A stretch of 64,000 nucleotides of DNA from an uncultured Candidatus Saccharibacteria bacterium (GTDB lineage Bacteria > Patescibacteriota > Minisyncoccia > Phycocordibacterales > UBA9973). The first letter of the stretch is position 1. Every line of letters starts with the position of its first letter. Below are positions 9,056 through 48,340 of the stretch, piece after piece. A model generated the notes under the pieces. It did not search any database and was not told where the DNA came from. It saw only the letters and a list, made by a program, of their open reading frames with translations. Location: the NCBI GenBank assembly GCA_964474435.1, contig CAYYSI010000002.1:92260-156259 (forward strand). The letters are read 5' to 3'. Both the position numbers and the translations under genes were made by a program.

Positions 9056-10147
9056 TTAACGATTGGTTGGCATCAAGAGATAGAGGAAACTTGTGTCATT
9101 TACACTACGCACGACGATCGGTTTATTGGGAGTAGTAAATGAGAGTGAGACACTATCACCTGGAAGCGCTTGAAACACATCGAGGAAATACTTAAGATTA
9201 CAAACAACTTCGATCGGATCACCCTGGACAACTGAGTCAATAATAGAAAGTGATGAGCCGACGTCACTATTTTTAGAACTAATGCTGATCTGTTTTGATT
9301 CGGGATTGATCATAAATATGACTTGGAAAAATTTATCCGCGAATATAGTGGAGAGTTTGAGAGTGTTGAGGAGGTCTTGCTTCATCACGACGACCTTTGT
9401 ATTTTCTTCTTTTGGGATAATAAGCTGATATGGGGGAAATCCTCCATCAATGAGCCTAGATGTGAAATAGACACCATTTCCGCTCACTGAGAGCTGATTG
9501 CGAGTATATGAGATACGAGCAGTGTCTCCACAGACTTCGAGTGCACGAAGGAGATCGGCAATATTTTTATATGGAATTAAAATCTTGGAAATATCAGGGA
9601 AGTTTTTAATGACAACCTTTTTCTCTGCGAGGCGGAATGAGTCAGTTGCAACGAGATAGAGTGTGCCTCCTTCGGCATAAATATAAATACTTGAGATTTC
9701 GGGTTTGATCTCACTCACTGCTGCTGCAAAGTACACTGACTTGATCGCGTCTTGGAGGACTGTTGTCTTTATTTCTACAACATCTCCTTCAACTACTGGA
9801 AGCGCTGGGAAATCTTCTGGAAGAAGGGACTTGATGACCGTGGTCGTCTTTTGGGAAGTGATGGTGAGATTATCGTTTTCGAGTGTGAGTGTTACATCGC
9901 CCGTGAGGTTACTGCAGACATTGGCGAGGATATCCCCTTTGATCACGACAACACCATCTGTTTCGACTGCTGCTGCGATCTCTACTTCAATACCGACAGT
10001 GAGGTTAGTTGATCGGATCTTGATAGATTTACCTGTGGCCTGCAAAAGAATGGAATGAAGAATAGGAAGCGTGAGATGTTTACCCGTCATGCGATCAGCG
10101 AGTGTTACGGCATTTTTGAGTTTTTCTACTGAACAAGTAACTTTCAT
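9056..10147 (-). CDS. dnaN: DNA polymerase III beta sliding clamp
   Basis: Three-domain, 363-aa beta-clamp architecture; located immediately downstream of dnaA. Confidence 0.9.
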   Translation of the reverse strand: MKVTCSVEKLKNAVTLADRMTGKHLTLPILHSILLQATGKSIKIRSTNLTVGIEVEIAAAVETDGVVVIKGDILANVCSNLTGDVTLTLENDNLTITSQKTTTVIKSLLPEDFPALPVVEGDVVEIKTTVLQDAIKSVYFAAAVSEIKPEISSIYIYAEGGTLYLVATDSFRLAEKKVVIKNFPDISKILIPYKNIADLLRALEVCGDTARISYTRNQLSVSGNGVYFTSRLIDGGFPPYQLIIPKEENTKVVVMKQDLLNTLKLSTIFADKFFQVIFMINPESKQISISSKNSDVGSSLSIIDSVVQGDPIEVVCNLKYFLDVFQALPGDSVSLSFTTPNKPIVVRSVNDTSFLYLLMPTNR

Positions 10148-10339
10148 AATAATTCAACTAAGCTTCTAATATAGAGTGTGGATTGTGGATATCTCTTCAA
10201 ATACCGTTATATTTCAATAGTATTTTCAGAGACATGACTGTGAGTAAGTATTGAGTATCTTTGATAACTATTTTCAGAGACACTTACTATACACAGTTCT
10301 TCCAATACATTCTCACTTCATTTCCTCGACATATCCACA
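10148..10339. promoter_or_regulatory. dnaA-dnaN intergenic origin-associated region with DnaA boxes
   Basis: TGTGGATAT at 10184-10192 and its inverse ATATCCACA at 10331-10339 (8/9 to consensus) flank an AT-rich segment that contains two copies of TATTTTCAGAGACA (10221-10234, 10269-10282). Confidence 0.55.
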
Positions 10340-11683
10340 TCATTTAAACATGATACGGATATCTTCGAGTTCTTTCATGAGATGTGGGTCGCGATCAAGT
10401 TCATTTTTAATTTTTTCATAGGAGTGAATGACAGTGGTGTGATCTTTTCCACCAAGTTTTGCACCGATTGATGGATAGGACTCATTGAAGTCTTCTCGAA
10501 GGATAAACATGATCACTTGGCGAGCTTTCACAATCTCTTTACGGCGTGTCTTTTCATAGATCACTCGCTCATCAAGGTTGTAATACTCAGAGATCGACTT
10601 CACAACTGTGTCGACCGATACAACTCGTCGTGGTTTAACGCTATTTTTAATCAATACCTTCACCTCAGTCAAGCTTATCGGCTTTTGTTTGACCTCAGTG
10701 TGCACTGAAATGACATTGAGTACACCTTCAAGCTCTCGAATACTACTTGTCACAACTGAGGCAATATAGAGGAGGACGTCTTCGTCGAGTGGGTGCGGGA
10801 GTTGGGCACTCTTTTCGCGCACAATCGCAAGTCTACTCTCGAGATCAGGCTCTTGGATGTCGATAGTCATACCGGCATTGAAGCGAGTCTTGAGACGGTC
10901 TTCGAGGCCAATAATATGGTTTGGGTGTTTATCAGAAGAGAAAATAATATTTTTCCCCTGCTCATAGAGCGCATTGAAGAGATGGAAGAGTTCTGTCTGG
11001 GTCCCCTCCTTTCCTGAGACAAATTGAATATCATCAATAATAAGAACATCAACCTTGCGGTATTTTTCACGGAAGGTATTGGTACGATTAGTTTGAACAG
11101 AACTCGTATAATCATTCATAAATTTCTCCGCAGTAGTATAGAGGACGCGCTTATCAGGAAAGAGTCGCTTCATCTCGTTCCCTACTGCTTGAGTGAGGTG
11201 GGTTTTACCAAGACCGCTCGCACTATAGAAAAAGAGTGGGTTATACGCGTGTTGTGGGTTTTTCACGACTGCTTGGGCTGCGGCATACGCAAGTTCATTA
11301 AATGGTCCAACAACAAAGCGATCAAAGGTGTATCGAGGGTTAAGGTTGTCGTCGCGGTTAATATAGACTTGTTGGAGTGGAAGCTCAGGCTTTTCTTCAA
11401 TACTTTTTGGTTGTACTGGTTGTGGAGCAGAGATTTGGCCGATAATGAACTCAATCCCTCGGATATGGTCCAAGTGGTCTACAATCGTCTTTAAGATGAG
11501 TTTGTGGTACTTGGTGATCATCCACTCACGGACGAATTCATTGGGGACAGTGATGTAAATGATCCCCTCTTCCTCTTTATTGATTGCAGTATTTTTAAAC
11601 CAAGTAGTGAAGTTTGCCTTGGTGACCTGAGGTTCGATTTCTTGTAGGCAAGTCTCCCAGAGTTGTAATACTGATGTATCCAT
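10340..11683 (-). CDS. dnaA: chromosomal replication initiator DnaA
   Basis: AAA+ Walker A GLGKTHL, Walker B LIIDDIQF, and a C-terminal DnaA-box binding domain. Confidence 0.95.
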   Translation of the reverse strand: MDTSVLQLWETCLQEIEPQVTKANFTTWFKNTAINKEEEGIIYITVPNEFVREWMITKYHKLILKTIVDHLDHIRGIEFIIGQISAPQPVQPKSIEEKPELPLQQVYINRDDNLNPRYTFDRFVVGPFNELAYAAAQAVVKNPQHAYNPLFFYSASGLGKTHLTQAVGNEMKRLFPDKRVLYTTAEKFMNDYTSSVQTNRTNTFREKYRKVDVLIIDDIQFVSGKEGTQTELFHLFNALYEQGKNIIFSSDKHPNHIIGLEDRLKTRFNAGMTIDIQEPDLESRLAIVREKSAQLPHPLDEDVLLYIASVVTSSIRELEGVLNVISVHTEVKQKPISLTEVKVLIKNSVKPRRVVSVDTVVKSISEYYNLDERVIYEKTRRKEIVKARQVIMFILREDFNESYPSIGAKLGGKDHTTVIHSYEKIKNELDRDPHLMKELEDIRIMFK

Positions 11684-11827
11684 AATTTCGTATCCCTATC
11701 ATACCGCACATCAACACTATTGTTGAAAGTGGGGAAAACATGTGAATAGTGTTGATTATAGCAGAATTACCACAGGACTAGAGAGACTTGATTACTTCCC
11801 TACTATTGTGTATAGTGTTGCTACTTT
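11684..11827. promoter_or_regulatory. rpmH-dnaA intergenic region with DnaA-box-like repeats (candidate oriC part / dnaA promoter)
   Basis: Three copies of ATAGTGTTG, two of them within TGTGAATAG / TGTGTATAG (8/9 to TGTGNATAA) and one inverted at about 11714. Confidence 0.45.
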
Positions 11828-11962
11828 ATGTCACAAACCTACCAGCCAAATAAGCGAAAACGAGCAACAACACACGGATTTTTGGTCCGCTCTGCCTCTG
11901 TAGGTGGCCGCAAAGTCCTCAAAGCACGTCGCCAAAAAGGCCGCGCCAAGCTCGCTGTCTAA
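11828..11962 (+). CDS. rpmH: 50S ribosomal protein L34
   Basis: Manual translation gives [44 protein letters not shown]; below the track cutoff. Confidence 0.85.
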
Positions 11963-11972
11963 CCCCTCTCCT

Positions 11973-12296
11973 ATGCTTCCTAAAACAGAACGGCTCTCTC
12001 GTGCTCAGTTCTCAGAAATCCTTACAAATAAAGGCTTTTTGACCATTTATAACCGTCTTGGGACGCTCAAATATGTGCCTTCTAGTACTAAACAAGCACT
12101 TTCTGTAGTCACCAGTAGTAAGCATGAGAAAAAGGCCGTAATCCGCAATAAGCTCCGCCGCCGCCTGTATTCCCTATTTGGGAAGGAAAAACGCGCTATA
12201 ACGGGCATTTTCTATACTGCAAAGGGGTCATATGCGTTCAGTTATCCTGAAATACAAACACTTTTTAATGAATTACTCAAAAAGACTACTAAATAA
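11973..12296 (+). CDS. rnpA: ribonuclease P protein component
   Basis: Follows rpmH; basic protein with KLRRRLY; internal ATG at 11973 chosen because the track ORF overlaps rpmH. Confidence 0.75.
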   Translation: MLPKTERLSRAQFSEILTNKGFLTIYNRLGTLKYVPSSTKQALSVVTSSKHEKKAVIRNKLRRRLYSLFGKEKRAITGIFYTAKGSYAFSYPEIQTLFNELLKKTTK

Positions 12297-12525
12297 GGCC
12301 GCAATCGGTCTGATCCATGTCTACCGAGCTATTTTGTCGCCCTCAGTGGGAATCCTACGCATCTCACCTTTCTATCCTCGCCCAAGCTGCATCTTTTATC
12401 CGACATGCTCGGAGTACGGGATTGAATGCTTCAAAAAGTACCCATTCCTGACTGCGGTACGAAAAACAGCGAACCGTGTCGGGCGCTGTCACCCGGGGAA
12501 CGAACCGAAGGTGGACCTACCCTAA
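12268..12525 (+). CDS. yidD: membrane protein insertion efficiency factor YidD
   Basis: Conserved YidD motifs (FYPTCSEYGIE, RCHPG) and position between rnpA and yidC. Confidence 0.7.
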   Translation: MNYSKRLLNKAAIGLIHVYRAILSPSVGILRISPFYPRPSCIFYPTCSEYGIECFKKYPFLTAVRKTANRVGRCHPGNEPKVDLP

Positions 12526-12563
12526 TCCATTGCCATTTCGAGGTCTACGGGTACAATAGACGG

Positions 12564-13274
12564 ATGCATACCCTTTGGAATACCTTTATCTACAACCCGA
12601 TTTACAACGCACTCATATTCATCGCCCAGCACGTCACACTCCAAGACGTCGGGCTTGCGGTGATCCTCGTCACCATCCTTATCCGTTTCATCCTCCTCCC
12701 TCTTTCCAAGAAAAGTATTGTTGGGCAGTACAAAATGCGCGCACTTGAACCAAAGATTAATGCAATCAAGGCACAGGGTCTCTCAAAAGAAGAAGAATCA
12801 AAGGCAACCTTTGCACTCTACAAGACTGAAAAGGTCAATCCATTTTCTGGATGTCTCTATCTCCTCATCCAGCTCCCCATCCTTTTTGCGCTCTATTTTG
12901 TTTTCCGAAATGGTGTTGATCAGCCGACACATCTCTACTTGTTTTTGAGTACAGAAGGACTCAAGAATACACTTCTCGGGCTCGTCGATATCACCAAACC
13001 ATTCATCCCCTTTGCAATCCTTGCGGGTCTCACCCAAGGTATCCAAGCGTTCCTCACACCAAAGCCGCCTGTCAGTACTGATAATGGGTTCCAAGGTCAA
13101 TTTGCAAAGAGTATGGCAGTCCAGACCAAATACATCTTGCCACTCATTATTATATTTATTGCAACCAAGCTTGCTGCAGCAGTTGCACTCTATTGGTCTA
13201 TCACCAACATCTTTTCCATCGTTCAAGAGTTGTATTTCCGCAAGCAAATTGCTCGCAAAGCTACTATCAGTTAA
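12564..13274 (+). CDS. yidC: membrane protein insertase YidC (short form)
   Basis: Multi-TM Oxa1/YidC core; ATG at 12564 chosen just after the yidD stop. Confidence 0.8.
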   Translation: MHTLWNTFIYNPIYNALIFIAQHVTLQDVGLAVILVTILIRFILLPLSKKSIVGQYKMRALEPKINAIKAQGLSKEEESKATFALYKTEKVNPFSGCLYLLIQLPILFALYFVFRNGVDQPTHLYLFLSTEGLKNTLLGLVDITKPFIPFAILAGLTQGIQAFLTPKPPVSTDNGFQGQFAKSMAVQTKYILPLIIIFIATKLAAAVALYWSITNIFSIVQELYFRKQIARKATIS

Positions 13275-14530
13275 TAGCTATATTGCCAAAGGATACCTGT
13301 TTGTTTGTCGATGAAATACGCGACTCCAAGTGTTTCATCTACAGATAGGTTCGTCATGTCATATGAAGTGCCACTATTGTCGTACAGTGTGTCGTAGAGC
13401 GCAGCACTCGTGTAGATGCGATAGAGTTGGTCTGAGAATGTCACTGTGCCTTGGTACCACGCATCAGGATATGCTGCCTCTGGGACACTTGTGTTCCCTG
13501 CACAGATGAGGTCTTCGCTTTTGAGCCATGTGCATTTCTCGGGCAGTATTGTGAGACTGAGATTGCGAGTCGTATTCGTTTTAGTATTCAAAAGTTTGGT
13601 GACAAAGCTGTTGCCAGAGTTTTGTGAATAGATGATGTAGGTACCACTTGGACTGACTGACGCAGTGAGGCCGTTGATGTTGCCGAGCACACGACGAAGT
13701 TTCTTCTCAGTGGTATCAACTCGATACAGGAATCCTGGCACTTGTGCACTTGCCTTGGTTTGCAAGTATATACTTTTTGCTGTTGGCCACGAGAGTATCC
13801 ATTCGCGAAACGGGGTGCGGAGAATATCAATCTTTTTAGTATTGACTGTGTTTGTCACTGATAGGAGTGCACCATTTGTCTCATTGGTGATACGTGCGAC
13901 CTGTGCGCCATCAGGAGATGGAGCAAGGGCCGAGATGTTGTCCGAGAAGTACAATCCTTCTTTTTGAGTACGGGTGTTATCTGGGTTTGGCGGAGGAACT
14001 GGGACACTATAGGTCGCAATCGTGCGCTGGTCTGCGCGCAAGAATCGAAGGAGTGCTGTTGCAAACTTGTCTCCAAATGAGGCTTCGTAAATGTTTGGAA
14101 TATACACGTTTGAAATCTGGAGCGGCATAGAGCTATCCTCGATCTCGTACACGTAGCCGTTGCTGCGTGCAACATAGCGCAGGAGGTGTTTCGTCGTGAT
14201 CTGTGTCGTTGGTTTAGATTTGGGAATGCTCGGATCGGCAGGAATAGTGGTTGTGACCGTTGCAGTGTATGCACTAAAACCTGCGACTGCATCAGGACTC
14301 AGCTGTTTGAATGGAGATGCGATAGGGGTGGTATTTTCGGCAACAGTCTCAGCTCCTGTTGGGAGAGTGCCGGGAATGTTGGGGGTTGTATTTGCGCCTA
14401 TTGGGAAAAAGGCACCAAAGTCAGTAACTGCTGGTATACCATCCTCTGTCTGATGACGCTTGGCATAGATGTACCACCCAACACTCGCAACAACGAGGAG
14501 TCCGAGAATAATAAAAAAGATTTTCCGCAT
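13271..14530 (-). CDS. membrane-anchored hypothetical protein with beta-propeller-like (SPDG/SPSG) repeats
   Basis: N-terminal TM anchor; repeated SPDGAQV / SPSGTYIIY motifs reminiscent of TolB/PD40; the most distal gene of the T4SS-like array. Confidence 0.45.
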   Translation of the reverse strand: MRKIFFIILGLLVVASVGWYIYAKRHQTEDGIPAVTDFGAFFPIGANTTPNIPGTLPTGAETVAENTTPIASPFKQLSPDAVAGFSAYTATVTTTIPADPSIPKSKPTTQITTKHLLRYVARSNGYVYEIEDSSMPLQISNVYIPNIYEASFGDKFATALLRFLRADQRTIATYSVPVPPPNPDNTRTQKEGLYFSDNISALAPSPDGAQVARITNETNGALLSVTNTVNTKKIDILRTPFREWILSWPTAKSIYLQTKASAQVPGFLYRVDTTEKKLRRVLGNINGLTASVSPSGTYIIYSQNSGNSFVTKLLNTKTNTTRNLSLTILPEKCTWLKSEDLICAGNTSVPEAAYPDAWYQGTVTFSDQLYRIYTSAALYDTLYDNSGTSYDMTNLSVDETLGVAYFIDKQTGILWQYSY

Positions 14531-14550
14531 GAGAGTATTGTACTACAATA

Positions 14551-16269
14551 TTAGTTTCCAATAACCACTTGTGTTCCGGTTTTTATATATGGAAGCAGTG
14601 CTTCTATATCAGCGTTTTTCATTCGAATACACCCATTTGTTCCACTAAGGGTTCCGTTTTTATTACCGTGCATACCAATCCCTCTCTCACCATTTTGCAT
14701 AGGACTTAGGTGAAAGAAAGCAGCTCCCATGTTTGAACCTTGGGCATTAAATACTGGTTGCCCAGGTTTTTTTGGTGTTCTTATGTCTATAATTTTCCAA
14801 GTACCGATTGGTGTTTTTTTATCTCCTGTTTGTGCTTGTCCAGGGTTTGCAAAGCCATTGATTCCATGTCCAACATCAATAATATTATTTGTATCTACCG
14901 CCGAGCCTTTTTTAAGTCCAATAACCATCCTGTTATTTGTATATATTTTGAAATATGAAATTTCCCACCCTTCATTTTTAATTTTATTAACAACATTTGT
15001 TACCGCAGGAGAAATAGATGCATCTTTTGAATAAGTAACTTTTCCTGATTTGAAATCAGCTTCTTTGGAATCGTCACCAGCATCAGGATAATCAACAATT
15101 TCTACCCCAACCTCCACACTCGCAACATTGATACTATTCGAAACCAATTTTGGATTAATAGTATTGAGTATGAGGTATGCAGAGAGTGCTAAAAGCAATC
15201 CCATAAGTGCAGTAAAGAAACCACTTTTGGCACTTGCCTTGAGGAATGGCACATCAGTGACGAGGTATTGATAGCCTTCGTACATAAGTCGGAGTACAAG
15301 TACAACTGCCGTGAGGCCAATCAATGTTTTGAACGCAAAATTGAGGAAACCATTGATGTCACAGATTGCGTCTTGGGGAACTTTTTTATCAAGCTTTTGT
15401 TGTGCACAAAGATCAGGATCCATAAGCACTGATAGTCCTGGCCATGGCGCAAGCAGGTGGTAGCTTTTTGCATCGAACTCAGTCTGCTCTTTGACACTTC
15501 CCGCAGGGGTGTATCCAGTAGAACTATTGAACCTATCATCCTTTGTTGCGAGGACAGTGTTCCCTGTTTTGATGGTCTGGCGCATATAGTAGAGCGTATT
15601 TGGAGTAAGTCCGCCAAGATTCCAGTAGTATGAACCATCATCGTTTACACCTTCTGTCGACCCATTTGTTGTTGTGTGTGCGATAGCGAGTGCTGCCCCA
15701 GTGAAACCTCCTGATTGTGATGTGTAGAGTAGTTCAACTTTTAGGCCATTAATATAAGGATATTTTGTTATATCGATTTTTCCAGAAATAACCGCTTTCT
15801 GTCCATCACTACTTGGAGTTACTTCTTTTGGCCATGTATAAAAATTTGCTGTCCCCCCGGTTCCTGTGATCGCAACAGCAGTATCAGATGCATTTACTGG
15901 AGCCCCAATATTTGTAGATATTGTTCCGATAGTCGGAGCCTGTGGCAGCTTCATCGCATGCAAATAGTATGTGTAGTTATTTTTGTATGCACCGCCACTT
16001 ATCTGCCACACTACTTTGCCACCAACTGCTTTCTTGCGCATGTCAGTTGCGAATGTTGGAGAAGCGCTGTTAGGTGCAGGAACAGGTGCTGCATTGTCGT
16101 AGAGCTCAAACTCACTGACAGTGTCGGTCACACCCGTCATTGTCACAGTGATCTCTGTCGCAGACACGACTGCAGTGAGAGGATAGAGCGAAGCAACCAC
16201 AGATTTTGTTGGGATCAAAAAAAGAATGAGCGCGATGGGAATGAAGAGTGATTTAAAAAATGAATTCAT
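14551..16269 (-). CDS. secreted protein with central two-TM pilin-like hairpin and C-terminal L,D-transpeptidase (YkuD) domain
   Basis: Signal peptide MNSFFKSLFIPIALILFLIPTKSVVA (ATG at 16269). A hydrophobic hairpin (LIGLTAVVLVLRLMY...FFTALMGLLLALSAYLILNTI) resembles VirB2/TrbC pilins. The C-terminus has the YkuD motif GIGMHG...GCIRM. Confidence 0.55.
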   Translation of the reverse strand: MNSFFKSLFIPIALILFLIPTKSVVASLYPLTAVVSATEITVTMTGVTDTVSEFELYDNAAPVPAPNSASPTFATDMRKKAVGGKVVWQISGGAYKNNYTYYLHAMKLPQAPTIGTISTNIGAPVNASDTAVAITGTGGTANFYTWPKEVTPSSDGQKAVISGKIDITKYPYINGLKVELLYTSQSGGFTGAALAIAHTTTNGSTEGVNDDGSYYWNLGGLTPNTLYYMRQTIKTGNTVLATKDDRFNSSTGYTPAGSVKEQTEFDAKSYHLLAPWPGLSVLMDPDLCAQQKLDKKVPQDAICDINGFLNFAFKTLIGLTAVVLVLRLMYEGYQYLVTDVPFLKASAKSGFFTALMGLLLALSAYLILNTINPKLVSNSINVASVEVGVEIVDYPDAGDDSKEADFKSGKVTYSKDASISPAVTNVVNKIKNEGWEISYFKIYTNNRMVIGLKKGSAVDTNNIIDVGHGINGFANPGQAQTGDKKTPIGTWKIIDIRTPKKPGQPVFNAQGSNMGAAFFHLSPMQNGERGIGMHGNKNGTLSGTNGCIRMKNADIEALLPYIKTGTQVVIGN

Positions 16270-16270
16270 A

Positions 16271-17218
16271 TTAGTTAAATAGAAGCGTAAACTGTTTCTC
16301 AATATGCTGCAAGCTGTACGCGACAGTCGTGATCGCAAGATTGATGGTGCTTTGTACGGCAGTATTTGGACGAGAGAGACCTATTTCGTTTGCACGACTT
16401 GGGGTTACGGTTTGTCCATCGATGGTCATTGCAAATGAGAGATTGTTGAGAATGCCCTGTGGTGCGCTAAAGTAGTATGGTTCGAAATGAAGCACAATAC
16501 CCGTTTGCGTAAATGGGATAGTTTTGTTGTAGCCATGGGCATAGTCAACAAAACCTTCCCTGTTTTGATACGCAACAAGCGATGGAGACTGGAGTGCGGT
16601 CACTCGAGTAAGTCCTGTACCTGCAAAGACGCCGCCAGAGAGCGACACCTCAGTAGTTTCTTGGGGAGTGAATTCGTTTTGTGTAACAAGAAGGCTTGAT
16701 TTGTTGTATCCAGATTGTTCGGGTACGGCAGAGCCGTTGCGTGACCAGGTATAGGTGACTCCGCTTGGAGCACTTGCCGAAGGAATCGCCGTAAATCGCA
16801 GGAGTCCATTGACGGGCAAGAGCGCCTTCCCTTTATAAAATGGCGGCGTATACGCATCTGCTGCTTCCCAGAGTACGTCCACACTTGCTGGGCGAAGTAC
16901 GACACTCGTGCTCGCATTTTCGATACCTGAACCACTTGCATTCATAGAGACCACACCTGTTGCACCACTTGCAGGAGCAATGACACTAACCGTCGTTCTC
17001 CCTACACCTCGTGCAATGACGACGTTGTTGTACGTCCATGTGATAGAGGCTTGGCTGAGGTCTGCACTATAGCTTGATGCAGTGAGTGTTACAGTACTCC
17101 CTGGTTCGGGGTTGTTGGGTATGACATCAATAGAGATATCTGTACTAATTTGTGCTCGTGCGACATGAGGAATGAGCAGTGCTCCAACAATGAGCATGAT
17201 CGACCATATATATTTCAT
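16271..17218 (-). CDS. secreted hypothetical protein (signal peptide, Ig-like repeat composition)
   Basis: Cleavable signal peptide ending HVARAQ and a S/T-rich beta-rich sequence; tightly packed within the T4SS-like array. Confidence 0.45.
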   Translation of the reverse strand: MKYIWSIMLIVGALLIPHVARAQISTDISIDVIPNNPEPGSTVTLTASSYSADLSQASITWTYNNVVIARGVGRTTVSVIAPASGATGVVSMNASGSGIENASTSVVLRPASVDVLWEAADAYTPPFYKGKALLPVNGLLRFTAIPSASAPSGVTYTWSRNGSAVPEQSGYNKSSLLVTQNEFTPQETTEVSLSGGVFAGTGLTRVTALQSPSLVAYQNREGFVDYAHGYNKTIPFTQTGIVLHFEPYYFSAPQGILNNLSFAMTIDGQTVTPSRANEIGLSRPNTAVQSTINLAITTVAYSLQHIEKQFTLLFN

Positions 17219-17260
17219 GCATCTAGTATATCATCGAGTACCGTATCCGAATATGTATCG

Positions 17261-19069
17261 CTATCGGTTCTGTTCGCTAAATTCTTTCTTTGCGGCACGT
17301 ATGGAGATGACTTGGGATGGGTCAGATGTGATGATCTGGTCTTCGGTATATGATGCAATGATTTTGATCGCGACATGTTTGAGTCCGGCAAAGAAGATGC
17401 CCTCTCCGACACCACTCTCGAGCAAGAGAAACTTCTCTTCATCAGTGAGGTTGAATGTTTTCTGGAGTACATCCATAGTTGAGGGAGATTGTTTGAGCAA
17501 AAGTTGGATCGATGAGTTGGTGACGATTGGTACGCCATACGGGCTCTTCATGAAGTCCCCCACGTCTTGGGTGATAGTACAAAGTCCGAGATAGTATTTA
17601 CGGCCTCGCTTTGCGATTGAGTACAGGAACGATGCAGTGTCGTCTGACTTCATCATCCACCACGCCTCATCCACCACAAGTAGACGCTTCTTGAGTTCTT
17701 TGCGCACTGCATTCCAAATGAAGTGCGTGACGATGTACATCGCCGCTGGCTTGAGATCGTCTTCCATGTCGCGCACAGAGAACACGACGAACTTTTTGTT
17801 GATGTCGACGTTTGTTGGTTGGTTGATAAATGTTGCCCATGAGCCGTGTGTGTATTTGGTGAGACGCTGAAGTATGGACTCAGTCCCCTCCATACCAGAG
17901 AGCACCATTTCAAAGTCAGAAAGGAGTGGCGGTTCGATTGTTGCGAAGTCGCTTTCGGGTGTGATGTCTTTCAATGAATACGTTTCGGTAATCGCACGGT
18001 CGATGATCGAGTCTTCTTCAGGACTTAGTCCCCCAAGCATGATACGAAAGAGTCCGACAAGGTTGATGATGTTGGAGCGAAGTACATCTGCTGGGGACTC
18101 GTCCACACGAGGTATTGGCAGGTCAAATGGATTGATGTGGTTGTCAGACGAAAGTGAGATATTGAAATATCGTCCCCCGATTGCTTCTGCGAGGTATTCG
18201 TATTCGCGCTCTGGGTCAATGACGATCACGTCGGTATCAAACATCAGCGTTCGGATAATTTCAAGTTTAGTCGCATAACTTTTTCCGGCACCAGACTTCG
18301 CAAAGATGATGGAGTTGTAGTTCTCAAGTGAAAAGCGATCAAAGATCACAAGGGATGAGTTGTGACGGTTCACACCATAGAGAATGCCAGTGTCCCCTGT
18401 CAGGTCAAATGATACGAAGGGAAACATACTCGATATTGGTTCAGAGTTGAGCTTCTGAGTGATACCAAGCTTGTCAGTCCCAAGTGGTACGACGGTTTTG
18501 AACCCATCTTCTTCTTGAAAGAGCGCCGGTTTGATGTAGATCATCTTGGATTCGAGCATGCTCTTGATCTCGCTCTCGGTGCGGAAGAGATCATTTTCAT
18601 TGTCGGCATAGATCGAAATATAAAAGCCGATGTTAAACATCTTTTCTTGGGCTTGAGTGAGATTGTCACGGAGTTCTTCGAGGTCTTGGTACGCAGTATC
18701 GAGCATTGGGTCGCGCACAAGTCCCTTTTGCTGGCGGACGATGATCTGACTTTCTACCTCTGCAATTTTCTTTTGGAAATGTTTGAGGAGCTCAGAGGTC
18801 TCGATCGGGTTGACGTAGATTGCCACATCAAAGATCTTGTCGAGGTTGATGATTGGCGTGAACCAGTTGTCGGTGAGGTATCGTGGGTATGCGATCACAA
18901 AGAATGTGCGCACGGTCTTGTCACCAATGCGCATGGACTTGGGCGTGATCTCGATTGCAGACGGCGCGATCTTGTCTGCGAGCTCCATGGTCGCCCATTC
19001 ATACACTTCTTCGGGAAGAATAGGGAGTTTTTTATTTACTTTTTTGTCGTTCGATCCAAAGAGTGCCAT
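17261..19069 (-). CDS. VirB4/TraC/TrbE-family type IV secretion ATPase
   Basis: Walker A FAKSGAGKSY; Walker B LLVVDEAWWMM (the DEAW signature of VirB4/TraC AAA_10); 602 aa. Confidence 0.7.
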   Translation of the reverse strand: MALFGSNDKKVNKKLPILPEEVYEWATMELADKIAPSAIEITPKSMRIGDKTVRTFFVIAYPRYLTDNWFTPIINLDKIFDVAIYVNPIETSELLKHFQKKIAEVESQIIVRQQKGLVRDPMLDTAYQDLEELRDNLTQAQEKMFNIGFYISIYADNENDLFRTESEIKSMLESKMIYIKPALFQEEDGFKTVVPLGTDKLGITQKLNSEPISSMFPFVSFDLTGDTGILYGVNRHNSSLVIFDRFSLENYNSIIFAKSGAGKSYATKLEIIRTLMFDTDVIVIDPEREYEYLAEAIGGRYFNISLSSDNHINPFDLPIPRVDESPADVLRSNIINLVGLFRIMLGGLSPEEDSIIDRAITETYSLKDITPESDFATIEPPLLSDFEMVLSGMEGTESILQRLTKYTHGSWATFINQPTNVDINKKFVVFSVRDMEDDLKPAAMYIVTHFIWNAVRKELKKRLLVVDEAWWMMKSDDTASFLYSIAKRGRKYYLGLCTITQDVGDFMKSPYGVPIVTNSSIQLLLKQSPSTMDVLQKTFNLTDEEKFLLLESGVGEGIFFAGLKHVAIKIIASYTEDQIITSDPSQVISIRAAKKEFSEQNR

Positions 19070-19089
19070 TACTCCTCAAGTATACAATA

Positions 19090-19725
19090 CTATTGTCCTT
19101 TTGCTTGTGTTGTGTTCTCTCCAGGGTTGAATGTTTTGTACAAAAGCTCAATCACTTCTTCGGTGCCTAGTTGTGCAACACGCAGCCCCACACGCGACAG
19201 TCCTTGTTCAACGACACTCACGCGCTCTTCGAGCTGACTTCGCTGTTCTTCGAAATCACTCACGGTCTGTGTTGCTGTGCTTGTCTTATTAAAAAATGAA
19301 AACACTTTTGCAATACCCTTTTGCTGACTGAGGATTGGTGGGATATATGGGATCACGACGAAAAAGGACTTGCGCATGATGTTGACCTGATCGGTGAAAC
19401 TCTGAATGAACTGAATGTATTCGCGTGTTTGCACTTGAAGCAATGGCTCTGTCTGCTCCTTGAGGCGGTTTTGCAGCGTCAAAATGTAGGGCCTGATGTC
19501 ATAGCGGCGACTCTGAATGACAATTTCTATAGGGAAATCGAGGGTGTTGAGGAAGTTTTGGAACTGCATGAGAGTTGCACGCTGTTCATCATAGGATTTG
19601 AGTGAGAGGTTGATGGATGATACAAGGACGACCATGCAGAGTGAGCCATCTTTTTGTACGACGATACCATCGCGTACTTCTTTGACCGGGACGAATTGTT
19701 GGGCTGGTGTGCCAATGGTAGCCAT
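19090..19725 (-). CDS. hypothetical protein immediately upstream of VirB4-like ATPase (possible detached VirB4 N-terminal domain)
   Basis: 211 aa, soluble; 20-nt gap to the ATPase gene in a different frame, and its own start context precedes the ATPase ATG. Confidence 0.4.
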   Translation of the reverse strand: MATIGTPAQQFVPVKEVRDGIVVQKDGSLCMVVLVSSINLSLKSYDEQRATLMQFQNFLNTLDFPIEIVIQSRRYDIRPYILTLQNRLKEQTEPLLQVQTREYIQFIQSFTDQVNIMRKSFFVVIPYIPPILSQQKGIAKVFSFFNKTSTATQTVSDFEEQRSQLEERVSVVEQGLSRVGLRVAQLGTEEVIELLYKTFNPGENTTQAKGQ

Positions 19726-19727
19726 AG

Positions 19728-20135
19728 TTATTTTTGAGTATTGTTCGGATCAATAACGTCGAGACTCCATGACAAAGTCTTGAGTTTGCTCTCGGTTAGT
19801 GTAGCACGATCGTTGCTTGCCTGAGCTTCAGGAACATCACGCTTCCCTGGTACAGGTGCTTGTTTGCGCCAGAGATACAGGCGTGATTTGGAATAAAACC
19901 TGATGAATGACTGGAGCACATTGATAAACGGCTTGTCATTGTATTTGAAAAACGTAAGTGCGAGCGCAAGCGCGGCAAACGCAGGTGCGACAATGAGCGC
20001 GACGTAGATTGGGAGTATTTTGAATGAGAGATACACAAAGCCTGCTCCCCCGGCAAGGTATGCAAACTCTCGGAACGTAAATGGTCCGAATACTTTGTCC
20101 TCGATGTCGATAAATTGGGGAACCTTGAACTGCAT
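19728..20135 (-). CDS. VirB3/PrgI-like small two-TM protein
   Basis: 135 aa; two TM helices (LAGGAGFVYLSFKILPIYVALIVAPAFAALALALTFF); positioned directly upstream of the VirB4-like genes, as in Gram-positive T4SS loci. Confidence 0.4.
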   Translation of the reverse strand: MQFKVPQFIDIEDKVFGPFTFREFAYLAGGAGFVYLSFKILPIYVALIVAPAFAALALALTFFKYNDKPFINVLQSFIRFYSKSRLYLWRKQAPVPGKRDVPEAQASNDRATLTESKLKTLSWSLDVIDPNNTQK

Positions 20136-20169
20136 AGCTCTATTGTACCCTACTTCGCTTTATTTCTGA

Positions 20170-20703
20170 TTATTTTTCGGGGATTTCGCGATACGGATCG
20201 ATCGATTTGATGCCACTTGGTGCAGTTGATGGAGCCGATGTTGTATTGAGTGAAGTATTTTCACCATACGAACGCTTGGTTGGAGCAAGAGTCGATGGAG
20301 CGGTCATAGTTTGGTTGAGACGAGTAAATGAGTTATTTCCAGAAGCCTCTGCTTCAGACAACTCAACCTCTTCGTTTTGTGCATATCCATCTATAACTAA
20401 ATCAAAGATTTTATCAGTCACATTGTTTTTAACCCAATTTATAATTATCTGATTCATCTCCGGTGAAGTACTAATGGATCGGATACGATTAACCAGAGTT
20501 TCTTCTGTTTCTACTTGTGCTATATAACCATATAGAGTTCCTCGAAATAGTGATATCGTCTCTGATGTTAGTCGTTGTTCTTGGCAGAATTCAGTAAACG
20601 CTTTTATAAAAGAATCACTATAAATGTAATCCTTCACTTCCTCAGGAATTTTATTGAAAGACTCTTCTATTTTTTGCAAATTTTCATCCATATTATTTTC
20701 CAC
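20170..20703 (-). CDS. acidic hypothetical protein
   Basis: Track start is GTG at 20703 (alternative ATG at 20691); overlaps the upstream gene stop by 11 nt. Confidence 0.4.
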   Translation of the reverse strand: MENNMDENLQKIEESFNKIPEEVKDYIYSDSFIKAFTEFCQEQRLTSETISLFRGTLYGYIAQVETEETLVNRIRSISTSPEMNQIIINWVKNNVTDKIFDLVIDGYAQNEEVELSEAEASGNNSFTRLNQTMTAPSTLAPTKRSYGENTSLNTTSAPSTAPSGIKSIDPYREIPEK

Positions 20704-23700
20704 TCTCCTTCTCTTTATTTTCGCGCTTTTCCTTTATTTTTTCCAACTCATTTTCTTTCTTTGCAAGCTCACTCTCAAGACGACTCTTTGTTTCATCGTT
20801 AAGTTTGTTAAGGTCTTCTCTATGTTTTTCTTTCTGCATATAAAGATCATTTCTATCTGCCTCGAGATCTTCGGCTTCTTTTATTTTTCCTGCGCGTCTT
20901 GCTATACCTGCTCTATTATCTAAGTCGCGAATATTATTTTCCATGACATCAGTTTTTGCTCTGAGACCTCTCTTGTACATCTCCATAGTTTCTTCCTTGT
21001 CTTTTTCGCTGTCATATGAACCTTTTGTTTTGCCTTTGTATTTCTCAAAGGCTTTTTCGCCAGCGTTTGCTCGATCAATCATTTGATCAAAGAATGCACT
21101 AAAGCCACTTGTTACTGTGTTAAGTTGTTTGTTTAGCTCTTCAAGTTTTTTGTCGATTATTTTCTTTTCGTTTTCAATTCGATCCTCTTTTGATCCAAAC
21201 TTACCTTTCTCTCTTTGATCTTTAGCATCATCAACAAATTTCTTTGCAACGGAAACATCACTCTTATTCTTTCTACTCTGATCATAGAGAAATGCCCCTA
21301 AAGCGCCAGTAGTAACTCCCGCAGCGGCAAAGCCACCAGCCCCAAGTGCTGTCCCTACGCCACCCGCTGTACCAACCGCTGCAAGAGGTTTTCCAGCTTG
21401 TTGACCAAATGTTTGCCCTGCAGCAATAGTCTTTGCAAACTCAACGCGCAATGCTTGAGTGAGCTGTTTGTTGGTTTCGACTGTACCGTGTTCTGTCTTG
21501 AGCGCTTGAACTTTTTTAGCAACATTATCTTCATATGTTGCATCTTTAAATTTATTGGTTTTCTTCATCTCAGCGATTTCTGCTGCAGTCTTTCCTTCTG
21601 CCTTGAGTTCTTCAAGTCGTTTTGACTCCGCTTCTTTGTGTGCAATATCACTGAGTTTCTTGTTCCAGAAATCCTTCGCATCAGTATCTTTGAGATCTGT
21701 TTTGAGAGATTCAATCTTCTTTTTAGCATCATCCTTCTCTTTCTTTTCAACAGCTTTCATACCTCCTTTTGTTGCATCTTGTCCAAGGTTGAATAATCCA
21801 CTCACTTTGTCGTTGAGCTTAACTCCCATTTGTTTGCTTGCAGTATCGCTTATTTTACTGAATGCAGATGTCTTTCTAAAATCGAAACTACCAGTCTGTG
21901 CCTTGTCATTGAATCCAAGACGAAGGCTTGCGATTCTGCCACTAATACCTCCCTCTGCCTTTTGTTGCATCAAGTCAGCGCGTTTGTTTTCACTAAGTTT
22001 AAGTGCGCCGGCAAGGCGTGTACCAGCAAATGCTGCACCACCAGTTGCAACGCCAAGCGCTGCCCCACCAATAAATCCCGTAGCTTTTTCTGCATAACCC
22101 TGGATAAGTTTTCCTGCTTCACCTGCATAGTCTTCAGCAATTTTCACACCTTTCTTAATCATCATGTAGACAATAAGCATTGGAATAGCGATATAAATAA
22201 CAGTTTCCAAGAAATTTGATCCCGAGTTTACGTTGGTAAACCCAGTAATGAAATCCGAATCAATAAATGAATAAATGATGTATAAGAAAAAGACAAATAT
22301 AGGAGCAAGCAAGGCATACATCGTAGTATCGCTGAGCCACTTGTCCCATGAAAATTCTTTTATCTTACTTACAATCGGCATATTACCTTTGCTGAGAAAG
22401 GCAAAGGGTGAAAATATCATTGCAATGTAGAGGCCGATGACGCGACCAAGAAAGAAAAATGCGGTCTTCCAAAACATCATAGCGACAGCAAAGAGGATTG
22501 TCGCAGCAATCAAGCTCACAATAATATAATATGTCGCGTAGTCGTTTCTATTGAGAGGATTAGTTTTTTCACTATCACTCGAAGTATCATCAAATGTTAC
22601 TGTTCCGTTTACCCCCTTGGTACTTCCTGTTGCATTTTCTACATTCAAAACTTGTGTCGAGAATATTTTTTGTGGATTGAAAGAGGATACTATTTTTTCA
22701 GAGAGTGGTTTGTAGTTGCCAACACCTACCTTGAGATTGGTGATAGATCCATCTGCTGCTTTTACACACTTACCCTCACAGACTTCGACTGAGTTATAAA
22801 AGACTCGAGCGGTGACATTGGAGATATCGATGATTACACGTGTCGCAAAGAGACTAAAGTTGATCAATAGTGCATTGAGGATCAGGTTTGGAAGCACCTG
22901 CTTCATGTTCGACTTGTTACTAAAGACCGTCATGAGCCCTGTGTACACCAGAATTATAATGAAGAAAATATTGGAAATATCTCGCACAAGCTGCCATCCA
23001 CGAACTGCAAAGTCGGCACGGTATGATGCGTCGTTAAGCGAATACCCTAAAAAGAAATCAAAGAGCATACCAAAGAGCCCTGCAAACCAACTGATCGGAA
23101 CATAAATAGCGTAATATACGAGCCATGCAATACAGCCGACAAAGGATCCTTCCCCAGGGCCGGCACCGTTGAGGATGTGGCAGTTTGGAAGTGTCGATGA
23201 CGGTGAATCAACTAAGTTGACTGGAGTAACAGGAGTATCTGTTTGGGAAAGTGCGGCCGCATCAGTTGCTGGCATTTGAAACTGCTCTGATTGAGCAATC
23301 TTGAAGTAGGGTTTTCCGTCACCACAGAGATTGTTGAAACTATGAATACTTGATGTCGTAGTATTTGAATCAAGTGTCTGGCCGTTAGTGTTATCTCCGC
23401 AATACCACAGATCTGCTTGGTATTTTGTTGGATCACCAATCTTAAACTTATTTGCCTTTGTGATATTTGTTCCAAGTGTTCCAGTGCTTGATAATGGTGC
23501 AAGGTCTGAGATTTTAAATTGAACATTAAATTTTGAGTACTGATCATCAAGCGCACTTAAAATACCATTAACTCCTTGTGCTCGATAATGATAGATCTTT
23601 GTTGTTGGTTCAGTTTCTGTGGGGGCCGTACAAACACCATTGCTACAGTACGGAGTACCGTCTGCTTTTTGATCGATATTAGTAGGGGCAGTGCTATATG

Positions 23701-24187
23701 GTACAACAGAAAAAAGACAAGCATTTTCGTCTACTGCACCAGTTGAAGCGCTCACATCACACAAGCGTAGAATAAAAACTTTTGATGTAGCGGTAGGGGC
23801 AAAATCTTTAATATGATCCCAATGCCATTTTTTATTTTGATCGTTGGTAATCTTAAAGCTTCCTTGGAAATTGAATTTGAAATAACTAAGTGCCTGTGCA
23901 GGCGTTGTTGATTGAGGAGTTGTTGTAGGGGTACCTGGTGTTTGAGTAAGTACAGAGCCGGAGGGTGCATTCACAGTAACCGCTTGTTGCATTGTCAATT
24001 TTAATGCAGGGTCGGTTCCGTCAAACAGATTCACATACTCATTAAATACACCTACTTGCGCAAACGCCGGCATCACATTCCCTACCACCACAAACAAAAA
24101 GACAAGCGTTAAGAGCGCTGTCTTTGAGATGCGTTTGCATGATCGCAGTATTGCAATACTAATCCTTCGAACGGAGCGTGCTTTCAC
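20693..24187 (-). CDS. giant VirB6/TrbL-like polytopic membrane protein with N-terminal surface domain and C-terminal charged coiled-coil tail
   Basis: GTG start with signal/TM segment. About 330 aa extracellular region, then 8 or more TM helices with TrbL/VirB6-like spacing. A roughly 450-aa K/E/A-rich low-complexity tail follows. Confidence 0.5.
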   Translation of the reverse strand: MKARSVRRISIAILRSCKRISKTALLTLVFLFVVVGNVMPAFAQVGVFNEYVNLFDGTDPALKLTMQQAVTVNAPSGSVLTQTPGTPTTTPQSTTPAQALSYFKFNFQGSFKITNDQNKKWHWDHIKDFAPTATSKVFILRLCDVSASTGAVDENACLFSVVPYSTAPTNIDQKADGTPYCSNGVCTAPTETEPTTKIYHYRAQGVNGILSALDDQYSKFNVQFKISDLAPLSSTGTLGTNITKANKFKIGDPTKYQADLWYCGDNTNGQTLDSNTTTSSIHSFNNLCGDGKPYFKIAQSEQFQMPATDAAALSQTDTPVTPVNLVDSPSSTLPNCHILNGAGPGEGSFVGCIAWLVYYAIYVPISWFAGLFGMLFDFFLGYSLNDASYRADFAVRGWQLVRDISNIFFIIILVYTGLMTVFSNKSNMKQVLPNLILNALLINFSLFATRVIIDISNVTARVFYNSVEVCEGKCVKAADGSITNLKVGVGNYKPLSEKIVSSFNPQKIFSTQVLNVENATGSTKGVNGTVTFDDTSSDSEKTNPLNRNDYATYYIIVSLIAATILFAVAMMFWKTAFFFLGRVIGLYIAMIFSPFAFLSKGNMPIVSKIKEFSWDKWLSDTTMYALLAPIFVFFLYIIYSFIDSDFITGFTNVNSGSNFLETVIYIAIPMLIVYMMIKKGVKIAEDYAGEAGKLIQGYAEKATGFIGGAALGVATGGAAFAGTRLAGALKLSENKRADLMQQKAEGGISGRIASLRLGFNDKAQTGSFDFRKTSAFSKISDTASKQMGVKLNDKVSGLFNLGQDATKGGMKAVEKKEKDDAKKKIESLKTDLKDTDAKDFWNKKLSDIAHKEAESKRLEELKAEGKTAAEIAEMKKTNKFKDATYEDNVAKKVQALKTEHGTVETNKQLTQALRVEFAKTIAAGQTFGQQAGKPLAAVGTAGGVGTALGAGGFAAAGVTTGALGAFLYDQSRKNKSDVSVAKKFVDDAKDQREKGKFGSKEDRIENEKKIIDKKLEELNKQLNTVTSGFSAFFDQMIDRANAGEKAFEKYKGKTKGSYDSEKDKEETMEMYKRGLRAKTDVMENNIRDLDNRAGIARRAGKIKEAEDLEADRNDLYMQKEKHREDLNKLNDETKSRLESELAKKENELEKIKEKRENKEKESGK

Positions 24188-24217
24188 GCATATAGTGTAT
24201 CACGCAGAGCGATGTTT

Positions 24218-25162: not shown

Positions 25163-25170
25163 AATGAGTA

Positions 25171-27483: not shown

Positions 27484-27492
27484 GGTTGATGG

Positions 27493-32775: not shown

Positions 32776-32984
32776 GACTCACAGTGTAGCTGATTTATTC
32801 ACAAAGCGAAAATATCCTTATTTTGTAATGCTCTAGAGGAAGGATTGCATTAGGATAATACTCCAAAAGAGTGTCAATATAGCTAAAACAAGGCTAAAAT
32901 CAGCATTCCTTATTGACTAACCATGAATATAATTGTCCTATCACAACATGCTCGCATTCCTTGGTAAAATGATTGTCTATCTTT

Positions 32985-46785: not shown

Positions 46786-46802
46786 AGGGATATTCTATAT
46801 AG

Positions 46803-46874
46803 TGCACCCATCAGGACTCGAACCTGAAACGACGCTTCCGAAGAGCGCTGTGATATCCATTTCACCATGGGTGC
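46803..46874 (-). tRNA. tRNA-Arg (anticodon TCG)
   Basis: Manual fold: acceptor GCACCCA/TGGGTGC, anticodon stem GCGCT/AGCGT with loop CTTCGGA, T-arm CAGG-TTCGAGT-CCTG. Confidence 0.7.
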
Positions 46875-46940
46875 GTATTGCAACTATAGCATTATTAAGG
46901 TTTTTTGCAATTGTAAACCAATGTAGTAGTATATAATACG

Positions 46941-47591: not shown

Positions 47592-47594
47592 TAT

Positions 47595-48203: not shown

Positions 48204-48221
48204 GGTCTTTTTTGTGCGGGA

Positions 48222-48292: not shown

Positions 48293-48340
48293 CTATTTTA
48301 TATTCTTTGGTCTCCTTCGCCAAGGCTTCGGCGACCGTTG

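Follow-up and report, generated by a model that had tools for sequence, protein, structure and literature searches.

Type IV secretion systems (T4SSs) of unknown function are widespread in Patescibacteria, and the only species tested needs its system to grow as an epibiont (PMC10633639, PMC11665869, PMC12857230). The VirB2-like pilins of these bacteria are small, free-standing proteins encoded in arrays of 2-11 genes (PMC12102498), and pili of the T4SS_pilin family (PF18895) have not yet been visualised (PMC12857230, PMC10633639). In Paceibacteria the T4SS genes lie near oriC, in the chromosomal arrangement also seen here, and it is specifically in this group that VirB1-type hits associate with virB4; wall hydrolases encoded downstream of virB4 are essential in Southlakia epibionticum (PMC12102498). 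The same 2025 survey counted VirB2-like pilins and VirB1-like hydrolases separately and concluded that pilus biogenesis apparently needs no VirB1 homologue (PMC12102498). The T4SS of Patescibacteria, the PF18895 pilins, the oriC position, T4SS hydrolases, YkuD enzymes and Tlde1, an antibacterial effector with a YkuD fold, are already known. Here we describe a gene in a 64,000-nucleotide stretch of DNA from an uncultured Candidatus Saccharibacteria bacterium (contig CAYYSI010000002.1, in the following simply the window), whose product joins a two-helix hairpin of pilin type to a cell wall enzyme of the YkuD family. Comparison with its relatives indicates that such fusions are a standard arrangement in Paceibacteria and that the enzyme is exchangeable.

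The fusion gene (positions 14551 to 16269, minus strand) is a single uninterrupted open reading frame (ORF) of 572 amino acids (aa), with an ATG start at 16269 and a stop codon at 14551-14553. An alternative TTG start at 16338 would extend the ORF, and this longer version is unlikely because the preceding gene ends 1 nucleotide (nt) upstream of the fusion gene. A database protein (P0001) matches the 572-aa product with 100% identity, and the same product was gene-called independently on the Logan assembly of a separate sequencing run. The ORF is continuous, and NCBI and Logan, as independent sources, both contain the identical protein; the fusion therefore exists and does not stem from a frameshift. 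The full-length protein was modelled with AlphaFold2 (AF2) on the basis of 89 homologs, with a mean predicted local distance difference test score (pLDDT) of 78.8. In this model a hydrophobic N-terminus is followed by a beta-rich ectodomain, two long helices, a disordered tether and finally a helix plus the YkuD domain, reaching aa 570. The positions of all these elements are collected in Table 1.

Searching for homologs yielded 94 proteins with lengths of about 340-930 aa. Nearly all share one layout, in which a signal peptide and a variable ectodomain precede the hairpin and some 200 aa follow it. In the following, counts refer to a close-homolog set (n=89) or to a species-level syntenic set (n=68 proteins, one genome per species). 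When the hairpin profile was run against 1.84 billion cluster representatives, 148 clusters (50% identity) were found at E<=1e-30. Of the 150 best-scoring proteins listed, which measure 430-930 aa, nearly all place the hairpin in the middle of the protein. At E<=1e-10 the same profile reached 6,656 clusters, presumably the wider pilin family. The C-terminal extension behind the hairpin has a median length of 185 aa (67 ORFs from 58 loci). A sequence-only reading of the window had called this domain combination atypical and had proposed a database search for the same architecture. The search shows that the fusion recurs and is not unique to this contig: a hairpin with a wall enzyme is standard in Paceibacteria, as the 148 clusters and 58 loci indicate, and only the choice of YkuD is unusual.

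Regarding the enzymes, the C-terminal domains of the close homologs are VanY (19 proteins), NlpC/P60 (16), SLT_2 (12), SLT (11) and YkuD (11), and more rarely M15_4 (3), SLT_4 (2) or GDSL (1). Further members of the family carry Amidase_2, Amidase_5, M23, glucosaminidase or C39-like peptidase domains. YkuD is a minority among at least ten interchangeable C-terminal enzymes, present in 11 of the 89 close homologs and in 2 of the 68 species-level proteins. The sequence-only reading had set the YkuD enzyme apart from the hydrolases that T4SS loci usually use. Most of the interchangeable enzymes are indeed those hydrolases, on the same hairpin scaffold.

The relationship between hairpin and enzyme was then followed along the alignments. 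The homolog sequences part ways directly after 'VGV(E)', about 18 aa beyond the NTINP of the LILNTINP motif in which the hairpin terminates, and judging by the alignments the enzyme cassette has its recombination breakpoint here. In 39 of 63 cases, a hairpin and its nearest neighbour are attached to different enzymes. Five pairs of proteins, among them P0002 (YkuD) and P0070 (VanY), have scaffolds that are 98-100% identical (over up to 466 aa) and C-terminal domains with an identity of 20% or less. At the DNA level, the exchange is seen in two strains (loci L066 and L067) with 99.1-99.7% identity over about 10.9 kb aligned of an 11.9-kb contig. Only two stretches do not align between them, and one of these is the enzyme cassette, which is cleanly replaced: the left break falls at the junction, the right break lies 17 nt past the stop codon, and no additional gene is included. 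The gene after the cassette, a homolog of about 420 aa of the window gene at 13271-14530, is 99.7% identical in the two strains. An immunity gene travelling with the cassette was also considered and rejected, as the swap reaches no further than this right break and the next gene, that of the 419-aa protein, is conserved across loci whatever the cassette.

The composition of the window gene points in a similar direction. GC content at third codon positions (GC3) is 0.38-0.41 in the N-terminal domain and hairpin, 0.13 in the tether and 0.24 in the YkuD domain, compared to 0.43-0.58 in the neighbouring genes. The overall GC content of the tether plus YkuD cassette (14551-15156) is 0.33-0.37, with 0.33 in the tether. 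Because both measures fall below the rest of the gene and its neighbours, they suggest that the cassette came from a donor with lower GC content. Additionally, the window hairpin is closest to the hairpins of SLT_2 (87%) and SLT (84%) proteins, and the YkuD domain is closest to the YkuD domains of proteins with more distant scaffolds. Altogether, these sequence comparisons show that the C-terminal enzyme is an exchangeable cassette on a conserved scaffold.

The part of the scaffold that is best conserved, above both flanking domains, is the hairpin, with a mean column identity of 59% in the hairpin region vs 15% in the whole protein. Residues G332, K348, G357, N369, T370 and N372 are invariant in the homolog alignment. 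In the AF2 model the two helices span aa 305-337 and 341-371, which corrects the earlier placement of the hairpin at about aa 330-400; hydropathy segments were found at aa 1-19, 308-326 and 350-368. The loop between the helices, YEGYQYLVTDVPFLKASAKS, has a net charge of +1, and the flanks carry -1 on the N-terminal and -4 on the C-terminal side. Because these charges and two conserved cysteines of the ectodomain fit such an orientation, the hairpin would be inserted N-out/C-out, with both large domains outside the membrane.

Against PF18895 the window protein scores 13.9-16.7 bits, with a cutoff of 26.6 and profile positions 5-71 of 71 covered, and the excised hairpin region gives an E-value of 0.0078. 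The relatives match this family at E<=0.01 in 49 of the 89 close homologs and in 53 of the 68 proteins from the species-level set, with a best E-value of 1.4e-13. Syntenic orthologs exceed the cutoff exactly at the hairpin, with 48.6, 37.4 and 35.7 bits. Furthermore, a hidden Markov model (HMM) of the window hairpin connects to PF18895-matching relatives at E-values of 1e-9 to 1e-59. The plan typical of PF18895, that is a signal peptide, two hydrophobic helices and a short basic loop, is present in the fusion protein. The format of a small hairpin-only pilin is not, the protein having 572 aa, with large domains before as well as after the hairpin. Through its syntenic orthologs, the hairpin is thus assigned as a divergent member of T4SS_pilin (PF18895). 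A function as a pilin may be expected from the name of this family and from published work on Patescibacteria.

The hairpin had been described as typical of VirB2/TrbC pilins. The pilin family part of this description stands, by way of the orthologs, but the searches did not demonstrate the link to VirB2/TrbC. The canonical VirB2/TrbC family PF04956 is matched by only 4 of the 89 and 7 of the 68 relatives (best E 2.4e-4). Alignment of the hairpin with an Agrobacterium-type VirB2 profile by hhalign gave a probability of 2.9% and a score of 17.9, below the 19.7 of the reversed control; this profile, built from 120 homologs, is narrow (at least 57% identity) and leaves remote homology possible. 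A hairpin-only AF2 model (aa 266-385, pLDDT 73) was compared with the PDB by Foldseek and returned generic helical hairpins, none at E<=0.001 and with no VirB2, TraA or other pilins in the top 50. The fold comparison that the sequence-only reading had proposed is therefore to be taken as uninformative, not as a negative result. Nothing relevant came up when the hairpin was searched against the PDB by sequence and by profile.

In the T4SS operon and the rest of the 64 kb, no free-standing small pilin was detected with the hairpin HMM or by Pfam searches of small ORFs with transmembrane (TM) segments, and the hairpin HMM found no second copy of the hairpin in the window. A weak TrbC match in 39773-40384 was rejected as a pilin, the sequence being that of a single-TM protein. 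Outside the window, large proteins with repeated hairpins were observed: a giant poly-pilin of 1775 aa with 17 tandem pilin-type hairpin units (P0095), and four proteins with 7-11 tandem units each (P0174, P0176, P0177 and P0181). Proteins of the P0095 type may be real polyproteins or read-through of pilin arrays.

Upstream of the hairpin, the cleavage site of the probable signal peptide was read from the sequence via the -3/-1 rule. The ectodomain (aa ~30-300) is modelled as a confident beta-sandwich with a pLDDT of about 90, in agreement with the signal peptide and the roughly 300-aa beta-rich domain that had been read from the sequence. In a Foldseek search of the full-length model against the PDB it matched tandem pairs of fibronectin type III (FN3) and immunoglobulin (Ig) domains and the N-domain of purple acid phosphatase at E ~1e-6; these ectodomain matches dominated the search, and nothing was learned from it on the hairpin or the YkuD domain. 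The ectodomains of homologs match Pfam Pur_ac_phosph_N and fn3 and range in length from about 40 to 420 aa. The conserved neck before the first TM helix is modelled as a beta-hairpin plus helix. In the homolog alignment its Cys303 is invariant and Cys288 is present in at least 90% of the sequences, and the two may form a disulfide. On the other side of the hairpin, the tether has a pLDDT of about 31-53 over aa 371-420, and the stretch below 50 comprises aa 374-415, or about 40 aa.

In the case of the YkuD domain, PF03734 is matched by aa 444-570 at an E-value of 4.7e-14 (53.6 bits, cutoff 23.4), covering profile positions 8-146 of 146. The GIGMHG motif begins at aa 530 and GCIRM at aa 546, and 25 residues follow Cys547, just as the sequence-only reading had placed the catalytic cysteine. 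Among nine aligned YkuD-type cassettes, the H, C and R of the active site and the N of CIRMKN are invariant, and the position of G535 is occupied by G or S. A profile of these nine cassettes identified PDB entry 1y7m, Bacillus subtilis YkuD, as the closest solved relative (E 3.3e-5); this profile was required, as a phmmer search of the YkuD region alone against the PDB gave no matches. Residues H534, G535, C547 and R549 align with H123, G124, C139 and R141 of this structure. The identity of the C-terminal region as YkuD is therefore confirmed by the Pfam match above cutoff and by the aligned catalytic tetrad, and the domain looks catalytically competent. Its predicted outcome could be any of 3-3 cross-linking, anchoring of protein to peptidoglycan, or L,D-carboxypeptidase or exchange activity, and the cross-link remodelling or covalent anchoring proposed earlier are both possible. 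Pfam detected no peptidoglycan-cleaving SLT/lysozyme-like, CHAP or NlpC/P60 domain in the window protein, only YkuD, and a PHROGs search gave no match, hence no phage link.

Table 1. Elements of the fusion protein and genes of the surrounding operon, with positions in the window.
Feature	Position	Strand	Remarks
Probable Sec signal peptide	16192..16269	-	aa 1-26, MNSFFKSLFIPIALILFLIPTKSVVA|S; hydrophobic N-terminus in nearly all homologs
Variable beta-sandwich (tandem FN3/Ig-like) ectodomain	15475..16191	-	aa ~27-265
Conserved neck before TM1	15358..15474	-	aa 266-304, SYHLLAPWPGLSVLMDPDLC...ICDIN
Two-helix TM hairpin, T4SS_pilin (PF18895) type	15157..15357	-	aa 305-371
Shared junction, then disordered acidic tether	14965..15156	-	aa 372-435; junction PKLVSNSINVASVEVGVE
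YkuD-type L,D-transpeptidase catalytic domain	14554..14964	-	aa 436-572; Pfam PF03734
Catalytic motif H534-G535 ... C547-I-R549	14623..14670	-	GIGMHGNKNGTLSGTNGCIRM; alignment of YkuD-type cassettes
Membrane-anchored or secreted protein, 419 aa, directly downstream	13271..14530	-	conserved
Secreted Ig-like protein, ~315 aa	16271..17218	-	weak Pfam ig/Ig_3 matches
VirB4-type ATPase, C-terminal part, 602 aa	17261..19069	-	NCBIfam conju_CD1110 E 1.8e-111; Pfam P-loop_TraG
VirB4 N-terminal part, TrsD/TraC-like, 211 aa	19090..19725	-	NCBIfam VirB4_plasma, TrsD and CD1110 N-terminal matches
PrgI (VirB3-like)	19728..20135	-	Pfam PF12666 E 6.1e-10
Polytopic membrane protein, 1164 aa	20693..24187	-	9 hydrophobic segments

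The fusion gene belongs to a minus-strand operon (13271-28389). From its upstream end this operon encodes unannotated secreted or membrane proteins, the 1164-aa polytopic protein, a 177-aa protein, PrgI, a VirB4 split in two, the Ig-like protein, the fusion protein and the 419-aa protein. On one side the operon is flanked by ksgA (28408-29217), and on the other by the origin region with yidC, dnaA and dnaN (9056-13274); rnpA and rpmH are further housekeeping neighbours. To place this order in a broader context, 58 species-level loci of GTDB species representatives (Paceibacteria, Nomurabacteria, Minisyncoccia, Zambryskibacteria and others) were compared, and the 41 of them with at least 5 kb of upstream flank were used for synteny counts. 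In 38 of these 41 loci, the hairpin ORF was found downstream of VirB4, and dnaA is near in 36. The fusion gene is the second gene 3' of VirB4; the Ig-like gene keeps the same position in 34 of the 41 loci, and a homolog of the 419-aa protein is present in 34, constant whichever enzyme cassette precedes it. Loci L002-L007 show the same gene order. Usually one copy of the hairpin is encoded. The first four loci had given the impression that relatives always carry two tandem copies, and this was rejected, as tandem copies occur in only 5 of the 41 loci.

Regarding the other components of the operon, a separate TraC-like gene (PF26593, about 188-213 aa) is present in all seven gene-called loci that cover the VirB4 region, and a separate ORF for the N-terminal part of VirB4 was also found across the species-level loci. 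As the split is kept in every related locus examined, it is a feature of the lineage and no frameshift. The 1164-aa polytopic protein is conserved upstream of PrgI in related loci and, by its position and number of TM segments, is a candidate VirB6/PrgH analogue. Neither this protein nor the 419-aa protein has a Pfam/NCBIfam or PDB sequence match. The polytopic gene is also where the second non-aligning stretch of the two near-identical strains is found: a patch of about 390 bp (L066:1404-1792 vs L067:2480-2865) inside a gene for a protein of about 1163 aa, at aa ~788-916, beyond the last predicted TM segment. Judging from its position, this patch may be a second hypervariable and possibly surface-exposed element of the machine.

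By Pfam, no other cell wall enzyme is encoded inside the operon, so that YkuD is its sole wall enzyme, as had been read from the sequence. A class A penicillin-binding protein (PBP; 6281-8806) lies nearby and outside the operon. On the opposite strand, about 4.6 kb past the upstream operon end at 28389, a gene encodes an M23 peptidase with two LysM repeats (32973-34106, plus strand), a hydrolase which could also serve the T4SS. Elsewhere on the plus strand of the window, a 757-aa protein (48536-50809) combines an N-terminal hydrophobic segment with a Peptidase_S74 intramolecular chaperone domain of the endosialidase/tail-fibre type (E 1.5e-17). It adjoins a cluster of four tRNA genes (46802-48411) and may be a surface protein of phage origin or of fibre-like type. 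A 740-aa multi-TM protein with a CarboxypepD_reg-like (transthyretin-like) domain is encoded at 52386-54608 (plus strand).

Based on these observations, our preferred reading, which we put forward with middling confidence, is that the fusion protein serves as the dedicated, exchangeable wall-editing subunit of a monoderm-type T4SS of Paceibacteria, anchored by its pilin-type hairpin and occupying the VirB1/PrgK slot. In monoderm systems VirB4 is followed by the wall enzyme, as in prgJ-prgK, conE-cwlT and orf16-orf14 of Tn916, and PMC12102498 is in agreement with this. The assignment to the VirB1 slot rests on the match with this order and on the peptidoglycan hydrolase domains that most members of the family carry. 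Mechanistically, the N-terminus would be exported by Sec, and the hairpin would insert N-out/C-out with its small positive loop in the cytoplasm, so that the FN3-like ectodomain and the enzyme would both come to lie outside the membrane. The hairpin would then dock the protein into or beside the membrane complex of VirB3, VirB4 and the VirB6-like protein, or co-assemble in a pilin-like manner. The flexible tether of about 40 aa would bring the enzyme to the peptidoglycan at the secretion site. There, Cys547, together with His534 and Arg549, would form an acyl-enzyme with a tetrapeptide stem, which would be re-linked (3-3 cross-link or anchoring) or trimmed by L,D-carboxypeptidase-type editing. 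The gene order slightly favours the producer's own wall as the target.

Several points weigh against this wall-editing role at the secretion site. The window protein itself stays below the PF18895 cutoff, and similarity of its hairpin to the solved VirB2/TraA pilins could not be demonstrated by the sequence and fold searches. The physical association of the protein with the T4SS is a prediction. Strict equivalence of the YkuD version to VirB1 hydrolases is doubtful, because a transpeptidase does not open the wall. Finally, the replacement of enzymes between 99% identical strains looks like diversifying selection, which would be expected of host-directed factors more than of a housekeeping aid to assembly.

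The strong conservation of the hairpin and the replacement of the enzyme between near-identical strains together leave room for a second reading, which we regard as tentative. Here the hairpin would be a true VirB2-type pilin, extracted by VirB4 and polymerised, or capping a short pilus or stalk, and it would display the FN3-like domain and an enzyme directed at the host wall. Cassette swapping would then track host wall chemistry, i.e. host range. The status of the hairpin as best-conserved segment and its PF18895 membership are in line with this, and so is the lack of a free-standing small pilin in the window operon or elsewhere in the 64 kb. With the appended domains placed outside the cytoplasm by the predicted topology, extraction would leave them on the exterior of the filament. 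Moreover, cassettes are polymorphic on 98-100% identical scaffolds, the swap between two strains with 99% DNA identity is clean, and the window cassette is of foreign composition. The set of NlpC/P60, lysozyme-like, M15, amidase, YkuD and SGNH enzymes would mirror the Tae/Tge/Tlde sets of type VI secretion systems (T6SSs), and T4SS and pilins are essential for epibiotic growth in the patescibacterial species tested (PMC10633639, PMC12857230). However, about 300 aa before and 200 aa behind each hairpin would, on geometric grounds, crowd a homopolymeric filament. The cassette also travels without an immunity gene, the swap ending behind the stop codon and the 419-aa gene remaining invariant, and the searches found no fold- or profile-level link to solved conjugative pilins. 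In addition, the tether could equally reach the producer's own wall. The full scenario, in which VirB4 loads the hairpin into a pilus or stalk so that the adhesin-like FN3 domain and the swapped enzyme breach host peptidoglycan and set the host range, is accordingly possible and at the same time doubtful. If true, this modular carrier would be the first mechanistic handle on the essentiality of the T4SS in the epibiotic lifestyle of Patescibacteria.

In a third explanation, the protein would have an ordinary housekeeping role as an L,D-transpeptidase, with the hairpin as a mere bitopic membrane anchor, and would lie beside T4SS genes near oriC by chance. YkuD enzymes are common in wall maintenance, the locus is next to yidC, rnpA, rpmH, dnaA, dnaN and the PBP gene, and the sub-threshold PF18895 score together with the non-specific fold search of the hairpin could be read in the same sense. 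Nevertheless, we consider this improbable. The slot between VirB4/Ig-like and the 419-aa gene is kept in 38 of 41 species-level loci, and it is filled by unrelated enzymes, with YkuD in the minority. A lytic transglycosylase or amidase could not replace a housekeeping L,D-transpeptidase, and plain anchors do not have 59% column identity and invariant polar residues. A purely housekeeping role thus appears to fit poorly, because the hairpin is over-conserved for an anchor and the enzyme is replaced between near-identical strains. Finally, an assembly or frameshift artefact, in which two separate genes, one for a pilin and one for an L,D-transpeptidase, were joined, has a negligible likelihood, given the continuous ORF in independent records, the mid-protein hairpin in nearly all of the 150 best-scoring proteins listed from the 148 clusters, and the 66 of 67 hairpin ORFs that extend at least 77 aa past the hairpin, the exception running off its contig end.

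The family described here suggests that in Paceibacteria at least the VirB2-like and VirB1-like roles are physically joined in one protein. It is important to add that the VanY, YkuD and amidase modules belong to families outside the SLT and NlpC types targeted by VirB1 searches. In the searchable literature (subscription journals not covered) we found no description of the pilin-hairpin/wall-enzyme fusion as a standard Paceibacteria arrangement, nor of strain-level enzyme cassette exchange on a pilin-type scaffold. The junction represents a defined recombination hotspot that could be traced in metagenomes. Testable predictions concern which wall is edited, whether the hairpin polymerises and whether the cassette type tracks the host.

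Among described systems, the fusion protein resembles the wall enzymes PrgK (pCF10), TraG (pIP501), CwlT (ICEBs1) and TcpG (pCW3) in several respects. It is encoded 3' of VirB4 in a monoderm operon similar to the mating pair formation (MPF) class MPF-FATA, it is membrane-anchored with a wall-active domain that is, by the predicted topology, extracytoplasmic, and the relatives that occupy its slot have SLT and NlpC/P60/CHAP-type domains, as these proteins do (literature via PMC12102498). Unlike this class, the anchor is a two-helix pilin-type hairpin in the middle of the protein instead of a single N-terminal TM helix, an FN3-like ectodomain precedes it, the catalytic cassette is swappable, and the module found in the window is a YkuD transpeptidase and no hydrolase. 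With the PF18895 pilins of Southlakia epibionticum the protein shares a signal peptide, two hydrophobic helices, a short basic loop and a position beside virB4/prgI, and most relatives match PF18895 as do the patescibacterial VirB2-like pilins (PMC12102498, PMC10633639, PMC12857230). Unlike those pilins, it has about 280 aa of mature sequence in front of its hairpin and 200 aa behind, and it is present in one or two copies.

The enzyme part resembles B. subtilis YkuD (1y7m) and the L,D-transpeptidases (Ldts) of Escherichia coli, all of PF03734 with an H-G...C-x-R tetrad. Unlike Ldts of the YkuD family, the fusion has no LysM or peptidoglycan-binding domain; its enzyme is instead joined by a tether to a hairpin of pilin type and encoded within a T4SS operon. 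The spacing from His to Cys is short in the window protein, with 12 residues between them, and Asn precedes G-C, where many Ldts usually have His. A pilin module with an additional functional domain has its counterpart in PilB of Streptococcus sanguinis, a type IV pilin module that bears an extra globular domain. Unlike in such modular pilins, the hairpin is of an unrelated fold and machinery (T4SS VirB2 type, not type IV pilus), and to our knowledge enzymatic cassette swapping has not been described for modular type IV pilins.

The closest parallel to the swapping itself is found in polymorphic toxins, with which the family shares a conserved N-terminal region, a sharp junction and unrelated C-terminal enzymes that are exchanged between near-identical strains. 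Different from these toxins, no co-varying immunity gene accompanies the cassette, and unlike both polymorphic toxins and Tlde1 the fusion protein is probably Sec-exported and membrane-embedded, not a soluble secreted substrate. When the profile of the YkuD cassettes was compared with the sequences of solved structures, the matches were classical YkuD-type enzymes, with no chain named as a Tlde effector. In its choice of enzymes, the family nonetheless resembles T6SS effector sets, where a YkuD-fold option (Tlde1) likewise stands beside peptidoglycan amidase, glycosidase and peptidase options.

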